Program-made: the position numbers and the translations under genes
In this document: piece after piece, positions 12,396 through 61,250 of the stretch
Layout of the letters: the number at the start of each line of letters is the position of its first letter
Numbering within the stretch: position 1 is the stretch's first letter
The notes under the pieces: generated by a model
Database searches by the model: none
Told to the model about the DNA's origin: nothing
What the model saw: only the letters and a program-made list of their open reading frames with translations
Assembly: GCA_963835065.1 (NCBI GenBank)
Contig: CAWIEK010000053.1
Span: 64,001-128,000, forward strand
DNA: 64,000 bases
Direction: 5' to 3'
DNA from: an uncultured Chthonomonadaceae bacterium
GTDB taxonomy: Bacteria; Armatimonadota; Chthonomonadetes; Chthonomonadales; Chthonomonadaceae

Positions 12396-13325
12396 ATGAT
12401 AGCATTACCGAATACCGAACAGGAAATAGGGAACAGGAAACAGGGAACAGGGAACAGGAACCTGTTACTCAACGCTCAACGCTCAACGCTCAACGCTTTT
12501 ACCTTAATTGAGTTGCTCGTCGTCATCGCGATTATCGCCATCTTGGCGGCGATCCTGTTCCCCGTGTTTGCGCAGGCGCGGGAAAAGGCGCGGCAGACAA
12601 GCTGCCTGAGCAACATCAAGCAGATCGGCACGGCCATGCTGATGTACTCGCAGGATTATGACGAGCAGTTCCCCACCGGGCGCTACAATCCCGCGTACCC
12701 CAATCCCGCCGATTATGGCAAAGGATGGGCCAGCGCCCTGTACTCGTATACCAAAAACGCGCAAATTCTCAAGTGCCCCGATGACGGCACGGCAAACGTC
12801 GCCACGTCCAGCGTTTCGCCCGCGCTGTACCCGGTCTCGTATGTCTACAACTACAACATCGCGCAGCAGCCCGGCATTGCCGGCCAGAACGCGCCCGCCA
12901 GCACGGTGCTGATGGGGGAAGTCGTAGGCGATCAGGCCAATGTAGTCGCATCGGGCGAACTGCCCTCGTCTTCAGTTCCCGTGTACTCCCCTGCCGGCAA
13001 CGGCCTGACGGTGCTGACGGCGATAGACGGCAGCGCCATGCCGGGTGTGGCCGGAGCCGTCAAGTACGACACGGGGCCGATGGGCGGCTACCAATTGGCG
13101 GCAGCGCCGCAGGTTCCGTACCCGTCCCTGTTCAAGAACAGCACGGGGCGGCACTCGGATGGCAGCATCTTCTGCCTGGCCGACGGACACGCCAAGTTCT
13201 TCAAGCCGCAGGCGGTTTCTCCCGGCTATAATGCGGGCAGTTCCGACGCGCCGCAGGACAACTCCGTGTATACGGCAGCGGGAACCGCCGACTCGCGCCA
13301 CGCCGTCACTTTCAGCGCCAACTGA
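12396..13325 (+). CDS. Prepilin-type N-terminal cleavage/methylation protein (DUF1559 / H-X9-DG)
   Basis: [41 protein letters not shown]-terminal [25 protein letters not shown] before ATG 12396. Confidence 0.93.
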
Positions 13326-28133: not shown

Positions 28134-28436
28134 ATGGAAACAACGATTGAAACAACTCTCAAGCCGGATACCGATGAAACGCTTGATGCAATCCCTGTCA
28201 CGCCGTTGTCAGCCGCGGAAAACGAACAGGAGTCGTCAAGCGATACTGCCGCTGTCTCGCCTGCGCCTTTGTTGCGCGGACAACAAAGGCCGACACCTAT
28301 CGGTCCGCCCATTCCGAACCATCCGCTTGCCCCATTATTAGGTTCATTCAATGATGAGCCTCTGTGGGACGAGTGGCAGGAAGCGATTCGCGTGTACCGT
28401 CAGCGCATGAATGAACAACAGGATGACGAGGAATGA
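28134..28436 (+). CDS. Putative antitoxin
   Basis: Acidic protein; HPLAPLLGSFNDEPLWDE; stop overlaps the toxin start (ATGA). Confidence 0.75.
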   Translation: METTIETTLKPDTDETLDAIPVTPLSAAENEQESSSDTAAVSPAPLLRGQQRPTPIGPPIPNHPLAPLLGSFNDEPLWDEWQEAIRVYRQRMNEQQDDEE

Positions 28437-28867
28437 CGCCAGGCTATGTTCTCGATTCAGATGTAGCTTCCCTGCTCACACATTATCCGAATCAACAGCC
28501 GCATCTTGTTCAAAAGGTTTCCGCAATGCCAATCCAACAGATGTGGATCAGCATTGTAACTATCGAGGAAGCGATAAAGGGCGCGTTTGCCCTCATCAAC
28601 AACCCGAAAATGCCCACAGCGCAGATACAATCCTGCGAACTCTTACGCCGCATCATGCAGGAGTATTCTCGCTTCCGTATTTTGCCCTATGATGCAACGG
28701 CGCAGCAGGTATACAAGAATATGACGGCGGCGGAAAAGCGCGTAGGCACGAACGACTGCAAAATTGCCGCCATTGCCATGTCGCGCAACTTTGTCGTGGT
28801 CACGCGCAATGTAAGAGACTTTACCCGCATCAACGGCGTCGTTTTTGAAGATTGGACGCAGCCGTAA
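28433..28867 (+). CDS. PIN-domain VapC toxin
   Basis: YVLDSD...SIVTIEE...GTNDCKIAAIA...VTRNVRDF..I.G..EDW; terminator hairpin at about 28897-28935. Confidence 0.92.
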   Translation: MTPGYVLDSDVASLLTHYPNQQPHLVQKVSAMPIQQMWISIVTIEEAIKGAFALINNPKMPTAQIQSCELLRRIMQEYSRFRILPYDATAQQVYKNMTAAEKRVGTNDCKIAAIAMSRNFVVVTRNVRDFTRINGVVFEDWTQP

Positions 28868-29350: not shown

Positions 29351-29552
29351 TTTCTACCCTCATCCGGCCTCCGGCCACCTTCTCCCTGCAAGGGAGAAGG
29401 CGAAACTAATCAATGGGCGGTTGAACGGGAGATGACGAAGCCTCTAAGCAATCTATAAGTATTCACAAAATCTCTGACCAACCCGCCCGATAAACAAATT
29501 AGCCTTCTCCCTTGCAGGGAGAAGGTGGCCGGAGGCCGGATGAGGGTAGAAA
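29351..29552. repeat. MITE/REPIN-like element with perfect 51-bp inverted repeats
   Basis: 29351-29401 is the exact reverse complement of 29502-29552; 100-bp spacer; related CCCTCTCCC...GGGAGAGGG hairpins near 13340, 28970 and 54045-54158. Confidence 0.88.
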
Positions 29553-29656: not shown

Positions 29657-31732
29657 GTGACCACCGATGCAACGCCGCAACTTAATCCCAATAGTAATGC
29701 CGATGCGCAACAGCCGCAGGCATTTCCGCCACCGCCCGATTTTGCGCGACAGGCTAATGCCAACAATTCCGATATTTACGAACTCGCCAATCAGGACACG
29801 GAAACATTTTGGGCCGAGTGCGCCCGCGAATTGACGTGGATTACGCCGTTTCAAAGCGTTCTGGAATGGAACCCGCCTCATGCCCGCTGGTTTGCCGACG
29901 GTCAACTCAACGTCAGCGCGAACTGCGTGGATCGGCATTTGCAGGCGCGAAGTGACAGGCGGGCTATCGTGTGGGAGGGAGAACCCGGCGAAGTCCGAAC
30001 CCTGACGTTTGCTGAACTGTCGCAGGACGTGAACAAATTCGCTAACGTGCTGAAAAGCCTGGGCGTACAAAAGGGAGACCGCGTGACTCTGTACATGCCG
30101 ATGGTTCCCGAAGCCGCGATTGCGATGCTGGCTTGTACGCGCATCGGCGCTCCTCATTCCGTCGTGTTCGGCGGCTTTTCCGCCGAAGCGTTGCGCGAAC
30201 GTACCATTGACTGCGGCTCCAAAGTGATTATCACGGCGGATGGCTACTGGCGGCGCGGCGGCATCGTGCCCCTCAAGCAGACAACGGACGAGGCGGCAGA
30301 AGCCTGCCCAACCGTAGAAAAGATCGTCGTCCTGAAACGCATCGGCGAACAGGCCAATGCCACGATGCAGTCCGGCCGCGACCTGTGGTGGCACGACCTG
30401 ATGGCAGACGCTTCCCCTGACTGCCCGCCCGAACCCATGAACGCGGAAGACCCGCTTTTCATTCTCTACACCTCCGGCAGTACCGGCAAGCCCAAAGGCA
30501 TCCTGCACACAACCGGCGGCTACCTGACCGGCGCTTACATCACCACCAAACTGATCTTCGACATCAAAGACACCGACCTCTACTGGTGTACGGCTGACAT
30601 CGGCTGGATTACCGGCCACTCCTATGTCGTCTACGGCCCCCTTGCCAACGGCGCGACGGTTTTCATGTACGAAGGTTCGCCGGATTGGGGAAAAAGCAAG
30701 GATGAAGGCGGAAGGATGAAGGATGAAAAACAAACTCCTGATTCATCCTTCATCCTTCATCCTTCATCCTTTCAAGATCGTGGGCGTTTCTGGGACATGA
30801 TCGAACAGCATAAGATTACCATTTTGTACACCGCGCCGACGTTGATACGCTCGTGTATGAAGTGGGGAGATGAGTTCCCACACGCGCATGATTTGTCGAG
30901 TCTGCGGCTTTTGGGAAGCGTGGGCGAACCGATCAACCCGGAAGCGTGGCTGTGGTATCACGAGCATATTGGGAACGGCAAATGCCCGATTGTGGATACG
31001 TGGTGGCAGACGGAAACGGGCGCAATTATGATAACGCCCCTGCCCGGCCTGACCACAACGTACCCCGGCAGCGCAACCCGCCCGTTCCCCGGCATTGAGG
31101 CGGATGTGGTGGACGAGAAGGGCAACCCGGTTCCTAATGGGAAAAATGGAATCTTAGTGATTCGTAAGCCCTGGCCGTCCATGCTGCGAACGCTGTGGAG
31201 CAACGATGAGCGGTACAAACAGGTGTATTGGAGCAAGTTCCCCGGCCTGTACTTCCCCGGCGACGGAGCCATGCGGGACGCGGACGGCAATTTCTGGCTG
31301 TTAGGCCGCGTGGACGATATCATACTTGTCGCAGGTCATAACATTAGTACGATGGAAATGGAAAGCGCGCTCGTAGAGCATCCCGCTGTGGCCGAGGCGG
31401 CAGTTGTCGGCAAAACGCACAAGGAGAAATGGCAAGTCCCCATCGCCTTCGTCGTTATCCGCGAAGCCCACGCGCCCGACAAAGACGACAAAGCCGCTCT
31501 CAAAGCCCTGAGCAGCGAACTGAAAGCGTTCGTGGCAACCAAACTCGGCGCGATCTTCCGCCCCGACGACGTGATCTTAACCGCCGATCTGCCCAAAACC
31601 CGCAGCGGCAAAATCATGCGCAGATTGCTGCGCGACATTGCCGAAGGCCGCGTCATGGGCGACACCACCACCCTCGCCGACCCCAACATCATCGCCAGCC
31701 TCAAAGACAAGTACGCCGACGAGGAAAATTGA
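29657..31732 (+). CDS. acs: Acetyl-CoA synthetase, with an in-frame repeat-derived insertion
   Basis: [61 protein letters not shown] start with AAGGAG RBS. Confidence 0.96.
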
Positions 31733-31752: not shown

Positions 31753-32106
31753 ATGCGAAAGCGTCTGCGCAAAAAACTGCATCGAAGTGAGTTTCAGGAG
31801 TTCGGCTTTCTGATTGTATGGCAGTTCCATGCGCGGCAATCCGAGCCGCAACTGGATACGTTTATGGACGCGCTGATTGCGGTCATTGAAGAAAGAGGCT
31901 TGACGCTGGGCGGCGGAACGGATGCGGCGTCAGGTTCGGGGTTCGTGTGCCGCGCCAAACGCGGTTCCGCGCAGGAAGCAGACCGCGCCCATCTCGAAAG
32001 CTGGCTGCATGGCCGCCCGGAAGTAGCCTTTGTCCATGTGGACGAATTGGAAGATGCGTGGAACCCGGAACCGCGCCAGTATCAGCATATCGTGGACTTG
32101 CTTTGA
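31753..32106 (+). CDS. yggL: YggL/DUF469 family protein
   Basis: MRKRLRKKLH..EFQEFGF...GGG...L.DAW signature. Confidence 0.85.
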   Translation: MRKRLRKKLHRSEFQEFGFLIVWQFHARQSEPQLDTFMDALIAVIEERGLTLGGGTDAASGSGFVCRAKRGSAQEADRAHLESWLHGRPEVAFVHVDELEDAWNPEPRQYQHIVDLL

Positions 32107-36974: not shown

Positions 36975-38666
36975 ATGCTTCTGCACGACATTATAACCGA
37001 AGGCGCGCAAACGCGCCCGCAGGAAATCGCGCTGATTTTTCGGGATCAGCCGCAAACATTCGCGGAATTGGCCGCGATGGTAAGCCGATTCGGGGCAGGA
37101 TTGGCGGCGCTTGGGATTGCAGCGGGCGATAAAATCGGCCTGCTGCTGCCCAATTGCCCGCCGTTCGTGTGGGCGTACTATGCCGCCTCGCAAATCGGCG
37201 CAATTGTCGTACCCGTCAATCCCCTGCTGAAAGCGGCGGAACTGGAATACATCTGGCGGGACGCGGACGTAAAACTCGTGGTTACGGCAGGCCCCCTGCT
37301 GCCCATCGCGCAGGCCGCGCGCCTCAATTTGCCCAACTTCCGCCACATCGTCAGCATCACGCCCCGCGAAGAACTTGCCGACACATCCCTCGCCGCCCTC
37401 CCCGGCCTGACGTTCCTGACTGATGTGCTGACAGGCGGGGAAGAACAGGGAACAGGGAACAGGAGAGCAGGGAACAGAAGGAACATGCTGAACAGGGGAC
37501 AGTGGATCAGTGAATAGAACGAGCATCCGAAGACAGAAGTCAGCATTCAGCAGCTCATCAATCGTCAATCGGCAATCGACTATCAGCAATCGACTAATGA
37601 CTGCGCTGTCATCATCTACACTTCCGGCACTACCGGGCATCCGAAGGGCGCGATGCTGTCACACCGGAATTTGACGCGGAATGTGGAACAGATACAGGCG
37701 CGCTTGCAGTTTCTGCCCGAAGACCGGTTTGTTACCGTGCTGCCGCTGTTTCATGCGTTTGCCGCAACCGTGTGCATGAACACCTGCCTTGCGGCGGGCT
37801 GCGCGTCCCTGCTGCTGGAAAACTTTACCCCGGCGCGCGTTCTGGAAACTATCTCCAGGCATAAGGCGACCATTTTCCCCGCCGTGCCCGCCATATTCAA
37901 TGCCGTGCTGAATCTTCCCGTCGAACACGCTCCCGATACCTCCAGCCTGCGCGTTTTGGTGTCGGGCGGAGCGCCGTTGCCCGCGCCGACATTGGCGGCA
38001 TTGGAGCAGCGGTTCGGCGTACCCGTTCTGGAGGGGGATGGGCCGACGGAGTGCAGCCCGGTCACGTCCGTCAACCCACTGGATGGGCCGCGCAAAATCG
38101 GCAGCGTCGGCCCTGCCCTGCCGGACGTGGAAATCGCTATTTTCGACGCGCAGGACAAGCCTGTGGAAACGGAAGAGGTCGGTGAAATCGTCGTTCGTGG
38201 CGACAACGTGATGCTCGGCTACCTAAATCAGCCCGATGCCACCCGCGAAGCCATGACAAACGGTTGGTATCACACGGGCGATTTGGGTAAACTGGATGCG
38301 GACGGCTATGTGTTCATCGTGGATCGCAAAAAGGACATGATTATCACGGCGGGGCTGAACGTGTACCCGCGTGAAGTCGAAGACGTATTGCTTTCCCATC
38401 CCGGCGTAGCGGACGTGGCTGTCATCGGAACGCCGGACACCCTGCGCGGCGAGGATGTGCTGGCGGTTGTGGTCGCCCGCCCTGATGTTCCTGCCCCCTC
38501 CGAGCGCGACCTGATCCGCTATTGCCGAGAACGGCTGGCAAACTACAAAGTCCCGCGTCAAATTCTGTTCCGCGCAATGCTGCCGCGCGGCGCAACCGGC
38601 AAAGTGGTCAAGCGCCTGCTCAAAAAAGAACTGGAACTCGAATCCAACCCGCCAACGAGCGAGTAA
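36975..38666 (+). CDS. Long-chain fatty-acid--CoA ligase interrupted by one in-frame TAG (37515-37517) inside a repeat-derived linker
   Basis: ORFs 36975-37517 and 37653-38666 are in the same frame; reading through gives AVIIYTSGTTGHPKGAML, GWYHTGD, DRKKD, YPREVE, GKV. Confidence 0.88.
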
Positions 38667-42138: not shown

Positions 42139-44626
42139 ATGTCGAATTTGCAAACACCTTTACCTATGCGTAATCGCCAGTATACAACTCGCCCGCCATT
42201 CCCTTCGTCAGATGATGCGCCTCCCGTTCCCCACGACGAGCAGGCTGCGCCACCCTACGCCTACAGTAAGAAGACAGAAGAGCAGGGAACAGGGAACAGG
42301 GAACAGGGAACAGAAGCAACTCAATCCACAATCCACAATCCACATTCGGCAATCGAAAATTCCCTCAACCCCTTTAGCGATACGCTGACGGGGGTTTTGG
42401 AGCGTGTCACGTACCATAATGAGGATAATGGGTACACGGTGGGGCGTTTAGCCGTCGAGGGCGCGCGGGATTTGATTACGGTTGTCGGTAATTTTACCAA
42501 CCCGGTTGTGGGCGAGCAACTCGTGTGCGAGGGCAAGTGGACGGCGCATAAAGAGTTCGGGCGACAGTTTGCGGTGGAGCGCTACCAGATGACCAAGCCC
42601 GCCACCGCCTTTGCCATTGAAAAGTATTTGGGCAGCGGCCTGATTAAAGGCATCGGGCCAGTCATGGCGAAGCGCATGGTGGATTTGTTCGGACTGGAAA
42701 CCTTGGACGTGATTGAAACCGATCCGCGCAAATTGCTGCGCGTGGGCGGCATCGGCGAAAAGCGGATCGAGAAAATCCAAAAGGCCTGGCACGAGCAGCG
42801 CGAAATTCGCAACGTGATGCTGTTTTTGCAGGGGCATGGCGTGTCGGCAACCTATGCGGTGAAAATCTACAAGACGTATGGCGACAAGGCGATACGAACC
42901 GTTGAAGAAAACCCGTACCGATTGGCGCAGGACATCTGGGGCATCGGGTTCAAAACGGCGGACAAGATCGCGCAGCAGATGGGCATTGCGCTTGAAAGCG
43001 AAAAACGTCTGGAAGCCGGATTGCTATACACCCTTTCGGAAGCGACGGACTTTGGGCATTTGTTCCTTCCCGAACCGAAACTGCTCACGTCGGCAGCCGA
43101 AATTTTGAGCGTGGAACCCGAAATCATCGCGCCCATCATGGAAAACATGGCCGCATCGGAAGCCGTAATCGCCGAGGATGTGGAAGGCGTCGAAATGGCG
43201 GGACGAGCAATGCGCGCCTTCTACCATCCCGCGCTGTATTATACGGAAGTGGGATTGGCCGCGCAAATACGCCGCAGGTTACAGCAGGACGCGGACAGGC
43301 CCGTGAACCGGGAAAAGATCGCCGCATGGATTACGCAGCAGGAAAAGCAGGCCGATATTACGCTGTCCGAGGAGCAGTCCGAGGCTGTAATGCTGGCTCT
43401 GGAAAAGAATTTTCTTGTGCTGACAGGCGGCCCGGGGACGGGTAAGACCAGTGTCACCAATTTGATTGCCCGCGCTTTCGACGCGCAGCATAAAAAGATG
43501 GTGCTGGTATCTCCCACCGGGCGCGCGGCCAAGCGCTTGAGCGAAGTGACGGGGCGGGAAGCGATGACCATTCACCGCCTGCTCAAGTTCGACCCGGCCA
43601 CGCACAGTTTTCAGTACAACGAGCAGAACCCACTTCCCTGTGATGTGCTGATTGCCGACGAGGTTTCCATGCTGGACGCGGTGCTGGCAAACAACCTGCT
43701 CAAAGCCATCCCGGAAACCGCGCAGGTGGTGTTTGTCGGTGACAGCGACCAACTTCCTTCAGTGGGCGCGGGCAACGTGCTGGGCGACCTGCTGAATTCA
43801 GGCGTGGTTCCGTCCATTCGCTTGACGCAGGTGTTCCGGCAGGCGCAGCAGAGTTTGATTGTGACCAACGCGCACAAAATTCGCAAGGGCGAGTTCCCCG
43901 TTCTGGTTCCGCCCAAGGAGCGCGACGGCAAGAACATGCTGTTTGTCGAAGTGGAGGAGGGGGAGGAGGGCGCGGACAAGGTTGTCGCGCTGGCCCGTAA
44001 GTCCCTGCCCGGCTTGGGCTATCGGGGCGATGATGTGCAGGTGTTGTCCGCGCTGAAAAAAGGCTCGTTGGGCGTGGACTATCTGAACCTGCGCCTGCAG
44101 GACGCGCTCAATCCCGCCGACCCGACAGGACGCGCGCCGGAACTGCTGCGGGGTTCGCGCCGGTTCCGCATCGGCGACCGCGTAATTCAGCTTGTCAACA
44201 ACTACGACAAGAACGTGTTCAACGGCGACATCGGCACAGTCGCCGACATCAAGCCGGAAGACCAAATCTTCTTCGTGCGCTTCGGGGAAGAAACCATCGA
44301 GTACGATTATGCCGACTACGATGAGTTGCAACTTGCATATGCGGTTTCAGCATCCATAAAGGCAGGGCAGCGAGTACAAAGCCGTGATTTTAGTGATGCA
44401 CTCCAGCCAGTACATGATGCTGCAGCGCAATTTGCTGTACACGGGCCTGACGCGGGCGCGCGACTTGTGCGTACTCGTCGGCGACAAAAAAGCCATTGCC
44501 CGCGCCGTCAAGAACGACAAAACCACCCGCCGCTATACTCGCCTCGCCGACCGCCTGCGCGAACAAAACAAGACTGATGAAGTACCAGTAAGCACAGTAT
44601 CTGCAAGTGGAAATCAGAGTTCTTGA
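42139..44626 (+). CDS. recD2: RecD2-type ATP-dependent DNA helicase; frameshift near 44350
   Basis: LERVTYHNEDNGYTV, YLGSGLIKGIG, TGGPGTGKT, PTGRAAKRL, DEVSM, GDSDQLPSVGAG, FNGDIG, LQRNLLYTGLTRA. Confidence 0.95.
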
Positions 44627-49658: not shown

Positions 49659-49787
49659 GGGGAAGGCATTAGGCATTGGGCATTAGGCATTAGCGGCAGG
49701 GCAGAAGGCAGAAAGCAGAAGATAGAAGCTAGAAAAGGATTGTGCCTCTTCTCTAATGCCTAATGCCCAATGCCTAATGCCTTCCCC
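49659..49787. repeat. Inverted pair of AGGCATT heptamer arrays (perfect 35-bp arms)
   Basis: 49659-49693 is the exact reverse complement of 49753-49787. Confidence 0.92.
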
Positions 49788-58955: not shown

Positions 58956-59162
58956 AAACAGCCTTTTCTTTCCGCATCCTTATTAAAGCGCTAAATTAAA
59001 GCGCTAAGGCGCGTTGGAGATTGGTTAAAACCTGAGTTTAGTAGGTAGGCATTAGGCATTAGGCATTAGAACAACCCTTGTTCTCTCTTGCTGCACAGCA
59101 AAAGGTACGCAAAGCAGTTCCTAATGCCTGATGCCTAACGCCTAATGCCTGATGCCTGATGC

Positions 59163-61250
59163 CTACTTGTTATTCACCGTGACGCCCGGCCAGGTATCGG
59201 TGCGGAAGGGGGATGCGGGCAGGCCGGCTTTGTTATACAGGTTGGCAACCGGGTTGATGTGCCAGGCGTAGCGGACGGCAACCGGATTGGAAACCTGCGC
59301 GGACGAAACGACGATGCTGTCGCCCTCGATTTTGGCGTCCGCCCACGCGAACTTGTGATCCTCGCCCGCGATGGCAAAGCCTTTGAGCGGTTCGCCGTTC
59401 GGGGTTGTCAGGCCACCACTGTGCGCGAATGTCAGGCGAATACGATTGCCTTCCACCTTCATAGACTTGTACTCCGGGCCGGAATACTCGATCTTTTCGC
59501 CGTATGTTTTCGCAAGGGCGACCAGGGCGAGGCGCTTGCCCACGTCCTGCTTGTTTTTGGGGTGGATGTCGCCCGCGTCGCCGATGTCCGTTGTGACCGC
59601 AATGCCCGCGTTCGGCAAATGCTGCGCCGTCATAGATTGGGCTTCGCGCAGTTCCGCCCACGCATCCTCAACCGGGTTGGGATTGGGCTGCTGCCAGTTC
59701 GCCAGTTGCACGATATAAAACGGGAAATCGCCTTCCTTCCAGCGGCTCCTCCAATCCGTAATCATCGCCGGCAGCAGGGTACGGTACTGGTACGCCTTGC
59801 CCGCGTTGGACTCGCCCTGATACCAGATGGCTCCCTTAATGCCCAGGGGGATGAGGGGCGCAATCATGCCGTTGTACAGCACGGTGGGGGCGTTGGGATT
59901 GTTATCAATGGGAGTCGGGAGCGGCTTGGCTTTGGGCAAGGGTACGCCCACTTTGTATTTCCACGCGCCCGTCAGGGGGATTTTGCGCCCGTCCGTCACT
60001 TCCAGGTACATCTGTTCCGGCTTGCCCGTGAAGCCCCCCGCCCCGCCCGTGTCCAGCACTCGCACGGCGATCTCGTTTTTGCCTGCATGCAGCGCGCCGA
60101 GCGGAAGCGTATAGGTCCGTTCTGCCGTCGCCGCGTCTGTGGCTCCCACCAGCCTGCCGTTGACCCATGTGGTATCGCGGTAATCAATAATTCCCAGGTG
60201 CAGAATGCACTGGCGGCTTTCCTCCCCCTCCGCCAGTTCAAATGTGCGCCGATACCACATCACGCCGTCAAAATTCGCCAGTTCGGGAACGCCGGATTGC
60301 TCCCACGCGCCGGGCAGGTTCATCGTCTGCCAGTTCGCGTCGCTGAAATCCATACCGTTCCAGATTTGCGCCGTGCCAGGATCGTTGGCAATGTACCAGT
60401 CGGTCATCATCGCCAGGTAGGGGCGTTCGCCCCGCGCCATGCGCGTCCGCACTTCCGCCATCCGTTCCACCGCCGGGGCATACTCCGGCACTTTCTGCGC
60501 CAGGGCTTCCCCGCTCGTCCACGCTTCCGCCGGGGTTCCGCCCCACGAGGTATGAATCAGGCCGATAGGCACTTTCAGGTTCTCATACAGATCGCGGCCA
60601 AAGAAATAGCCGACAGCCGAAAAGCCGTTCCAGCCGCCTGCCCGCACCGTTTGCGGGGTACACACGTCCCACTTGCCCGTGGGAACGGCGCGGGGTTCCA
60701 TAGCAATGTCCTTCGTCACCGTGAACAGGCGGATTTGCGGGTAATTGGCGTTTGCCACTTCCTGCGCGGCGTTGTTGACGTTGCCGATGCCCATTTCCAT
60801 ATTGGACTGCCCGGAGCAGACCCACACGTCGCCCATGAGAATGTTGCTCAGTGTCACGGTTTGCGGGCCGGTTATGCTCAGGGTGTACGGCCCGCCGGCG
60901 GGCAGGGGCGGCAGTTTCGCCGTCCATTTGCCGCTGGCGTCCGCTTTGGTTTTGGCTTCGTGGTCGCCAAGCTGCACGGTCACGGCCTGCCCCGTTGTCG
61001 CCCAACCCCAAATCAAAATGGGACGGTCGCGCTGCAGCACCATGTTGTCGCTGAACAGGGGGCTGAGGAAGGGCAGGTTGGCAGGAGCGGCAATGGCGCT
61101 GTTGGGCGCGGCAGCCGTCAGCCCAAGCGTGGCAGCGCCCGTCAGAAAGGGTGCAACGCCCATTGCCAGCGCCAGCCGCAGCAGGGAAGTTCCCGGTTTA
61201 CGGCAAGCGCGAAACGTTGTGGTTTTGCTGGATTGCATCGTGTTCAGCAT
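59163..61250 (-). CDS. Secreted sialate O-acetylesterase-family (SGNH) protein
   Basis: FSDNMVLQR, CSGQSNM, SWGGT, WYQGESN, DIHPKNK, PASPFRTD. Confidence 0.92.
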   Translation of the reverse strand: MLNTMQSSKTTTFRACRKPGTSLLRLALAMGVAPFLTGAATLGLTAAAPNSAIAAPANLPFLSPLFSDNMVLQRDRPILIWGWATTGQAVTVQLGDHEAKTKADASGKWTAKLPPLPAGGPYTLSITGPQTVTLSNILMGDVWVCSGQSNMEMGIGNVNNAAQEVANANYPQIRLFTVTKDIAMEPRAVPTGKWDVCTPQTVRAGGWNGFSAVGYFFGRDLYENLKVPIGLIHTSWGGTPAEAWTSGEALAQKVPEYAPAVERMAEVRTRMARGERPYLAMMTDWYIANDPGTAQIWNGMDFSDANWQTMNLPGAWEQSGVPELANFDGVMWYRRTFELAEGEESRQCILHLGIIDYRDTTWVNGRLVGATDAATAERTYTLPLGALHAGKNEIAVRVLDTGGAGGFTGKPEQMYLEVTDGRKIPLTGAWKYKVGVPLPKAKPLPTPIDNNPNAPTVLYNGMIAPLIPLGIKGAIWYQGESNAGKAYQYRTLLPAMITDWRSRWKEGDFPFYIVQLANWQQPNPNPVEDAWAELREAQSMTAQHLPNAGIAVTTDIGDAGDIHPKNKQDVGKRLALVALAKTYGEKIEYSGPEYKSMKVEGNRIRLTFAHSGGLTTPNGEPLKGFAIAGEDHKFAWADAKIEGDSIVVSSAQVSNPVAVRYAWHINPVANLYNKAGLPASPFRTDTWPGVTVNNK

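Follow-up and report, generated by a model that had tools for sequence, protein, structure and literature searches.

In-frame heptamer-repeat insert in the acetyl-CoA synthetase of an uncultured Chthonomonadaceae bacterium: a probable tolerated loop from a genome-wide repeat class

The window analyzed here, a stretch of 64,000 nucleotides from the 8.0-Mb genome of an uncultured Chthonomonadaceae bacterium (hereafter G000), carries on its forward strand, at 29657 to 31732, the acs gene for an acetate-CoA ligase of 691 amino acids, its GTG start being the one picked by the ORF caller. The product scores 935.6 bits against TIGR02188 (cut-off, 724.95), is the sole close AcsA match in an assembly that is 92% complete, and keeps the AcsA core motifs intact, PKTRSGK included. 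A structural model built from a 95-sequence alignment (pTM 0.87) is well folded apart from residues 350 to 368, where pLDDT falls below 50, and agrees with the solved Acs structure 5u29 at a TM-score of 0.87. Residue 592 (window 31430 to 31432), at the KGQ motif of the C-terminal domain, is Trp instead of a nearly invariant Gly, and full Acs activity is therefore uncertain. Directly 5' of acs, an intergenic inverted repeat (29351 to 29552) has 70-nt arms that are 89% complementary, with a 23-nt palindrome within each arm and the look of a REP- or MITE-type element. A PIN-domain gene and a small ORF upstream of it (28134 to 28867) are likely a toxin-antitoxin pair, and a YggL-family gene follows directly 3' of acs (31753 to 32106). 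A search for phage matches found none.

The subject of this study is the 29-codon, 87-nt insert between EGSPDW and DRGRFW (30689 to 30775, residues 345 to 373), which occupies a variable slot of Acs, is predicted to be disordered at residues 350 to 368, and represents a net gain of about 23 amino acids over a short family allele. On the forward strand, it consists of an AAAAGC leader (30692 to 30697), a G-rich left arm of 4.3 GGATGAA units (30698 to 30727), a 14-nt spacer forming the loop (30728 to 30741), and a C-rich right arm of 4.3 perfect TTCATCC units (30742 to 30771), each arm encoding 10 residues. The 30-nt arms are complementary at 28 of 30 positions and the reading frame is open across the insert. 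For the arms, the loop, the pairing, and the open frame we arrive at the same picture as a preliminary description made from the sequence alone, save that the left arm had been taken as pure (GGATGAA)n and its second unit is GGCGGAA; the two mismatches (30709 and 30710) lie within this unit and abolish an in-frame TGA. The hairpin has a predicted RNA folding energy of −51.6 kcal/mol (z −6.74), equaled by none of 200 shuffles. Parts of the insert recur elsewhere: the 14-mer GGATGAAGGATGAA has six matches in the window against 0.31 expected, the leader is shared with eight further loci, AAAAGCAAGGATGAAGG occurring nine times in the genome, the leader hexamer also ends the short allele of the relative G001, and the last 8 nt of the spacer, ACTCCTGA, abut TTCATCC at four further loci, a MetRS insert among them. 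The insert flanks, with dN/dS of 0.12 to 0.13 against three relatives, are under purifying selection.

When the insert is placed into genomic context, it proves to belong to a large class. G000 contains 2,667 period-7 arrays, against 22 in a shuffled genome and 108 at period 5, and 543 inverted array pairs within 120 nt; merging yields 1,580 heptamer elements from many unit families, which are mosaic in their arms and have no fixed ends. In 542 of the 543 hairpins the G-rich arm leads, and it precedes the C-rich arm in 735 of 744 multi-arm elements that have both kinds, whether or not the arms match. Perfect runs become steeply rarer from four to five units in 15 of 16 families: GGATGAA runs of two, three, and four units number 48, 32, and 60 (64 in a separate count of perfect four-unit runs), with none longer, and the commonest family, GATAGTT, which lacks GG, drops from 95 four-unit runs to 3 five-unit runs. 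In-frame internal elements number 199 and lie in 181 of about 4,317 coding-like ORFs (about 4% of genes), ORF counts that are estimates from our own hexamer coding model rather than annotation. Eighteen of 20 hand-picked insert ORFs match NCBIfam models, MetRS, LeuRS, ValRS, ProRS, GlmS, TopA, DnaG, UvrA, and MetH among them. Within its genome the single acs insert is ordinary, and it is probably near-neutral.

Outside genes, the hairpins of G000 have a near-constant geometry of 30-nt arms around a 40- to 70-nt loop (peak, 50 to 59) of lower G+C content (45%), and 298 of 348 such loops are matched nowhere else in the genome. The window holds five other heptamer elements (12428 to 12497, 37443 to 37580, 42280 to 42347, 49664 to 49782, and 59046 to 59167), none scored as in-frame internal and several of them cassettes of mixed G- and C-rich arms. 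Lone GGATGAA arms, as at C33:14399, C45:119638, and C48:2254, are often joined to a different conserved repeat that is not heptameric.

Close known systems are the heptamer repeats of Xanthomonas and Nostoc and the cyanobacterial STRR. The first two are built on GGGAATC and GGGGA(C/T)T, respectively, and two Xanthomonas species have 70 and 75 convergent inverted pairs (Rehm et al. 2015, PMC4692102, here and below to the extent of the sections available to us). They resemble the G000 class in their 7-nt units, four-unit preference, convergent inverted pairs, dispersed and mostly intergenic location, and fast turnover between species. Unlike them, G000 has dozens of coexisting unit families that form mosaics, and G-tracts of at least three are not a feature of its units, as the longest G run in GGATGAA is GG and several major families lack even that. 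The heptamer class is thus shared, but ours is not a G-quadruplex-forming family because such tracts are absent. Nor can quadruplexes be the general reason for the length ceiling, since GATAGTT shows it without GG; the idea fails for families that lack G-tracts. Read-through in frame within core genes and persistence of sites with swapped content are features that those sections of PMC4692102 do not describe for the Xanthomonas and Nostoc repeats.

The distribution of stop codons bears on whether the insert is translated. No frame of a perfect four-unit GGATGAA arm is free of stops; the partner arm of the acs insert, taken from the other strand in the acs frame, would give KDEG*RMKDE, and the left-arm mismatches sit exactly on that TGA. 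A census of 72 four-unit arms comprises 11 of the GGCGGAA allele, 59 perfect ones, and 2 other variants. Nine of the 11 are read through in sense in coding frames, compared with none of the 59 and neither of the 2. There are 13 copies of the variant motif in G000 and 14 in the same-genus genome G002, and it was not found in G001, G016, or G023; the TGATGAA family has a parallel stop-free allele, read RGMMNDE. Across the top 32 families, none of 436 arrays from families with stops on both strands lies in a gene, against 236 of 798 arrays from stop-free families, and one-strand-stop families have their open strand read 118 times and the other 26. As the stop-removing allele is read through while perfect arms never are, the insert is likely translated and not excised, a stop filter being expected if ribosomes read the insert and not if it were removed. 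A comparable exclusion of the stop-bearing strand from gene interiors is known for the TAACTGA repeats of Beggiatoaceae, dispersed arrays of two to six copies; these, as far as the accessible part of that report goes, are almost all direct, lie 5' of start codons, and have their coding copies at protein ends, whereas those of G000 are paired and internal (MacGregor 2015, PMC4679880).

Judged from sequence and predicted structure, the acs insert is therefore likely translated as a tolerated, disordered surface loop. The preliminary description had proposed that a palindrome is tolerated as a loop in a core enzyme and had suggested a structural model as a check. The proposal is supported by the low-confidence stretch at 350 to 368 in an otherwise well-folded model, by dN/dS of about 0.12 in the flanks, and by a score above the AcsA cut-off. 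Its analogy with the palindromic elements of Rickettsia also fits, in that in-frame inserts lie in unrelated housekeeping genes. According to the portion of a review available to us (PMC10969869), those elements are about 150 bp long and fall into ten families, each encoding a conserved peptide. Like the acs insert, they are palindromic repeats that sit in frame in unrelated housekeeping genes, whose fold seems to accommodate them. The acs insert departs from that description: it is 87 nt long, is pieced together from tandem heptamer arms without a conserved body or peptide, and occupies a type of site that outlives its contents.

The variable slot can be followed in 115 of 120 Acs homologues, the number that could be parsed. 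The canonical short turn is present in 34, while the loop is longer by 4 to 6 residues in 35 and by 9 to 55 in 46. The earlier view that the slot of Acs is normally just a few residues long is true of canonical Acs, which is 28 residues shorter, but not of those 35 and 46 homologues. About 20 of the long loops are, by eye, repeat translations from at least six families, the DNA of repeat-type loops having been seen for four (G000, G002, G023, and G015). A FastTree phylogeny without the loop (98 sequences, made up of 85 best matches, 7 of 35 more distant ones, and 6 genomes), whose deep nodes are weakly supported, distributes repeat alleles over about five separate branches. Long alleles surround short ones in two places, each with support of 1.0: G001 and P0018 beside P0006, and P0049 beside P0031. 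An alignment of orthologues, suggested earlier to define an empty allele, recovers short alleles and shows the slot to be a pre-existing variable loop with at least six repeat families.

Comparison between genomes extends this to other genes. At the acs slot, G002 has a GGATGAG/CTCATCC version, and because the right arms of both genomes are perfect despite a dS of 0.57 between them, these arms appear to have been written recently. Of 14 variant-arm loci in G002, 12 were run (two in short frames being left out) and 11 are internal; the best G000 match carries an insert at the identical position in 11 of 11 and from a different family in 9, with the proviso that 4 of the 11 belong to paralogue-rich families, where orthology means best hit. 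In the reverse test, five chosen G000 sites (LeuRS, two in ValRS, TopA, and MetRS) have an extra loop in G002 in all five cases, filled with other repeats at four and short at one. G001 has repeats at two of them and, with its repeat inserts in ValRS, is not repeat-free, and G023, from a different genus, has repeats at three of the four sites where the anchor was found. Independent hits at shared sites are implausible because only about 4% of genes carry any insert. As far as these sequences can tell, variability of the loop at the Acs site is family-wide and older than the present repeats, which appear to have been replaced time and again.

Some further observations concern these loci. In G002 acs (L019), the stem runs outward and replaces the conserved Trp-Gly after EGAPD; its product sits on a long branch, with several changes at conserved positions. 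The topA gene of G002 is split with stops, possibly through an assembly error. In L033, L039, L057, and their kin, HPELLDWLA paralogues and WTLEAAE paralogues carry different cassettes at the same position, from which it follows that slots persist through gene duplication too.

These findings are best accommodated, with a probability that we put at roughly 70%, by a translated and tolerated loop that is renewed at the DNA level, through template switching or gene conversion between arms scattered over the genome, with selection for open frames; the copying itself is what we infer. An ancestor of the family would have opened the Acs loop, and later lineages would have filled it with arms. Existing cassettes could be recut or could mispair, and repair that draws on arms elsewhere, again by template switching or gene conversion, would then exchange or collapse the content of the slot but leave the slot in place. 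Selection would retain only in-frame, stop-free alleles, in acs the GGCGGAA variant, and both acs arms may have been drawn from one family by chance, which would make the hairpin incidental. Repeat modules are indeed common to unrelated loci. Against rewriting stands the independently assembled homologue P0001 (92% identical), which keeps 28 of the 29 insert residues, the non-repeat spacer included; its near-identical insert fits neutrality only if the arms were re-templated. The Trp at residue 592 and the start of the slot only two residues past D343 also count against our reading.

Genes of the four-helix-bundle family PF05635 may be linked to the elements. All three such genes in G000 are bracketed by G-then-C arms, as are, by eye, 19 of 22 strong-hit loci in G000 and its kin, and the best solved relative of the product is Xcc0516 (E 6e-18). 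This family of 23S rRNA intervening sequences, with the Xcc0516 fold, resembles the Avd protein of diversity-generating retroelements (DGRs), according to the part of PMC10053308 available to us. The arm-bracketed gene is a likely coding version of the heptamer element; the acs insert shares such arms but encodes no such gene. Array density is 2 in 440 kb for seven genomes without a strong PF05635 hit and 22 in 280 kb for four genomes with one, 15 of the 22 coming from G002. Evidence against a causal role comes from G021 (no array in 60 kb) and G005 (one in 80 kb), in which presence of the gene does not predict density, and from G001, which has no such gene and yet has repeat inserts in ValRS. 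The reverse transcriptase family RVT_1 was considered as repeat maker and rejected: it is present in G000, G001, and G002 and was not found in G023 or G005, and so does not track the repeats.

It could be speculated from this that many bacteria have a dedicated repeat-writing system, in which an Avd-like four-helix-bundle protein and a host polymerase would add or swap a G-rich arm of fixed length (about 30 nt) on each side of a break in the fashion of a telomere, after which the ends would be rejoined. Occupied sites would be recut and rewritten, which would keep renewing the diversity of hundreds of core-enzyme loops out of a limited set of peptides, pre-adapted stop-free alleles among them. 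Such a system would fit the strict polarity, the four-unit ceiling, the absence of target duplication, and the persistence of slots. Neither the occurrence of RVT_1 genes nor, as regards array density, that of PF05635 follows the repeats, and we consider it a speculative and rather improbable proposal.

The refreshed loop has to be weighed against a model proposed for the Rickettsia elements, in which entire elements transpose, like MITEs and independently of one another, into a loop that is a permissive hot spot. The five or so branches of the Acs tree with repeat alleles would fit such transposition, as would a small gene (PF05635) bracketed by arms in the manner of terminal repeats and the recurrence of 41 of 348 intergenic loops at other loci. 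However, the 16-nt flanks of 461 hairpins have no excess of direct repeats (mean shared word, 3.44 versus 3.41; a 2-nt duplication would fall below detection), and a mosaic lacks the fixed ends of a mobile element. Terminal inverted repeats are present in the acs insert and in 447 of 549 non-coding two-arm elements but in only 14 of 73 coding ones, and the sole gene tested and found between such arms, PF05635, is not a known transposase. As occupancy of the same site in 11 of 11 cases, against about 4% of genes, would need inheritance or the targeting of existing elements, transposition of this kind is unlikely.

The hairpin could also be a functional RNA element, either an RNase III-type cut site or a ribosome pause, that sets Acs levels. 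The 30-bp stem at −51.6 kcal/mol and the still stronger G002 stem at the slot (z −10) would be in line with this, as would the preference of intergenic elements for matching arms, where 62 of the 549 would be expected by chance. In coding inserts, by contrast, arms match merely at the chance level (14.2 expected for the 14 of 73), and the hairpin is thus not conserved in genes. When 135 multi-arm coding inserts were folded, 21 had z below −4 and 101 were above −2; among 13 acs alleles folded, strong hairpins (z below −4) were confined to the alleles from G000 and G002, and that of G015 has z +0.5. An Rfam scan gave no family at the gathering score and no intron family, only sub-threshold matches to miRNA hairpins. 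The hairpin in genes is likely incidental, and there is no case for a conserved processing or pause site. The role in mRNA processing, pausing, or excision raised by the preliminary description is not upheld, given that the slot holds non-folding repeat alleles in kin, arms in coding inserts match at the chance level, and the stop-avoiding allele implies read-through. A functional element of this sort we regard as quite unlikely, although a side effect of the hairpin on acs mRNA is possible.

Local origin, in which polymerase slippage makes an arm and fold-back template switching makes the second without any copying between loci, would account for the G002 stem, whose outward extension covers the conserved Trp codon in the way expected of a local template switch, and for a slight enrichment of long outer-stem extensions in G000 (2.8% versus 0.9%). 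It does not sit well with the presence of one two-base variant arm at 13 loci in G000 and 14 in G002, with a spacer module common to four other loci, or with GGATGAA runs that never exceed four units where slippage would leave a tail. Since the variant arm and the spacer module are found at unlinked loci, this origin is already largely refuted, and it seems very unlikely.

More doubtful still is an adaptive role of the loop in the protein, by which access of CoA or the binding of partners would be modulated. The slot begins two residues past D343, which aligns with Salmonella N335, a residue that we take to be a CoA contact; no such contact is mentioned in the available portions of PMC10455477 and PMC11255334. 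That the longer loop is fixed across the family and the peptide is conserved in P0001 would also speak for adaptation. Against it, close kin vary freely in loop sequence and length, from 10 to 60 residues, identical peptides recur in unrelated proteins, and pLDDT in the loop is below 50.

Removal of the element from DNA or mRNA in the manner of an intron, or an assembly artefact, is the least probable of all: four DNA runs, each covering at most 38% of words, gave no piece that spans the site, and one X3 contig, probably from a relative, joins across it with 27 letters on its short side and unknown letters between, but stop avoidance and frame conservation are sensible only if the insert is read, no intron family is among the Rfam matches, and the separate assembly P0001 carries 28 of the 29 residues, which disfavors an artefact. 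Contigs of a strain in X1 that is about 95% alike end at 30696 and resume at 30782, with unmatched ends.

In a literature search of partial coverage, we found nothing on in-frame heptamer cassettes in Armatimonadota, on cassettes at persistent sites, or on arms flanking PF05635 genes. The small dispersed repeats of Nostoc treated by Elhai in 2008 reportedly include in-frame copies and may bear on novelty.

In conclusion, the heptamer class is more interesting than the single acs insert. For the convergent heptamer pairs of four units in bacteria, this lineage supplies testable rules in strict polarity, the length ceiling, the lack of target duplication, and an allele lacking stops by which arms can enter genes. 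A further rule is that in Acs, topoisomerase I, and aminoacyl-tRNA synthetases the loop sites are retained from genus to genus even as the DNA within them is swapped, and these loops also map insertion-tolerant sites in core enzymes. If the exchange is driven by an enzyme, it would, if true, be an unrecognized route to new protein loops.
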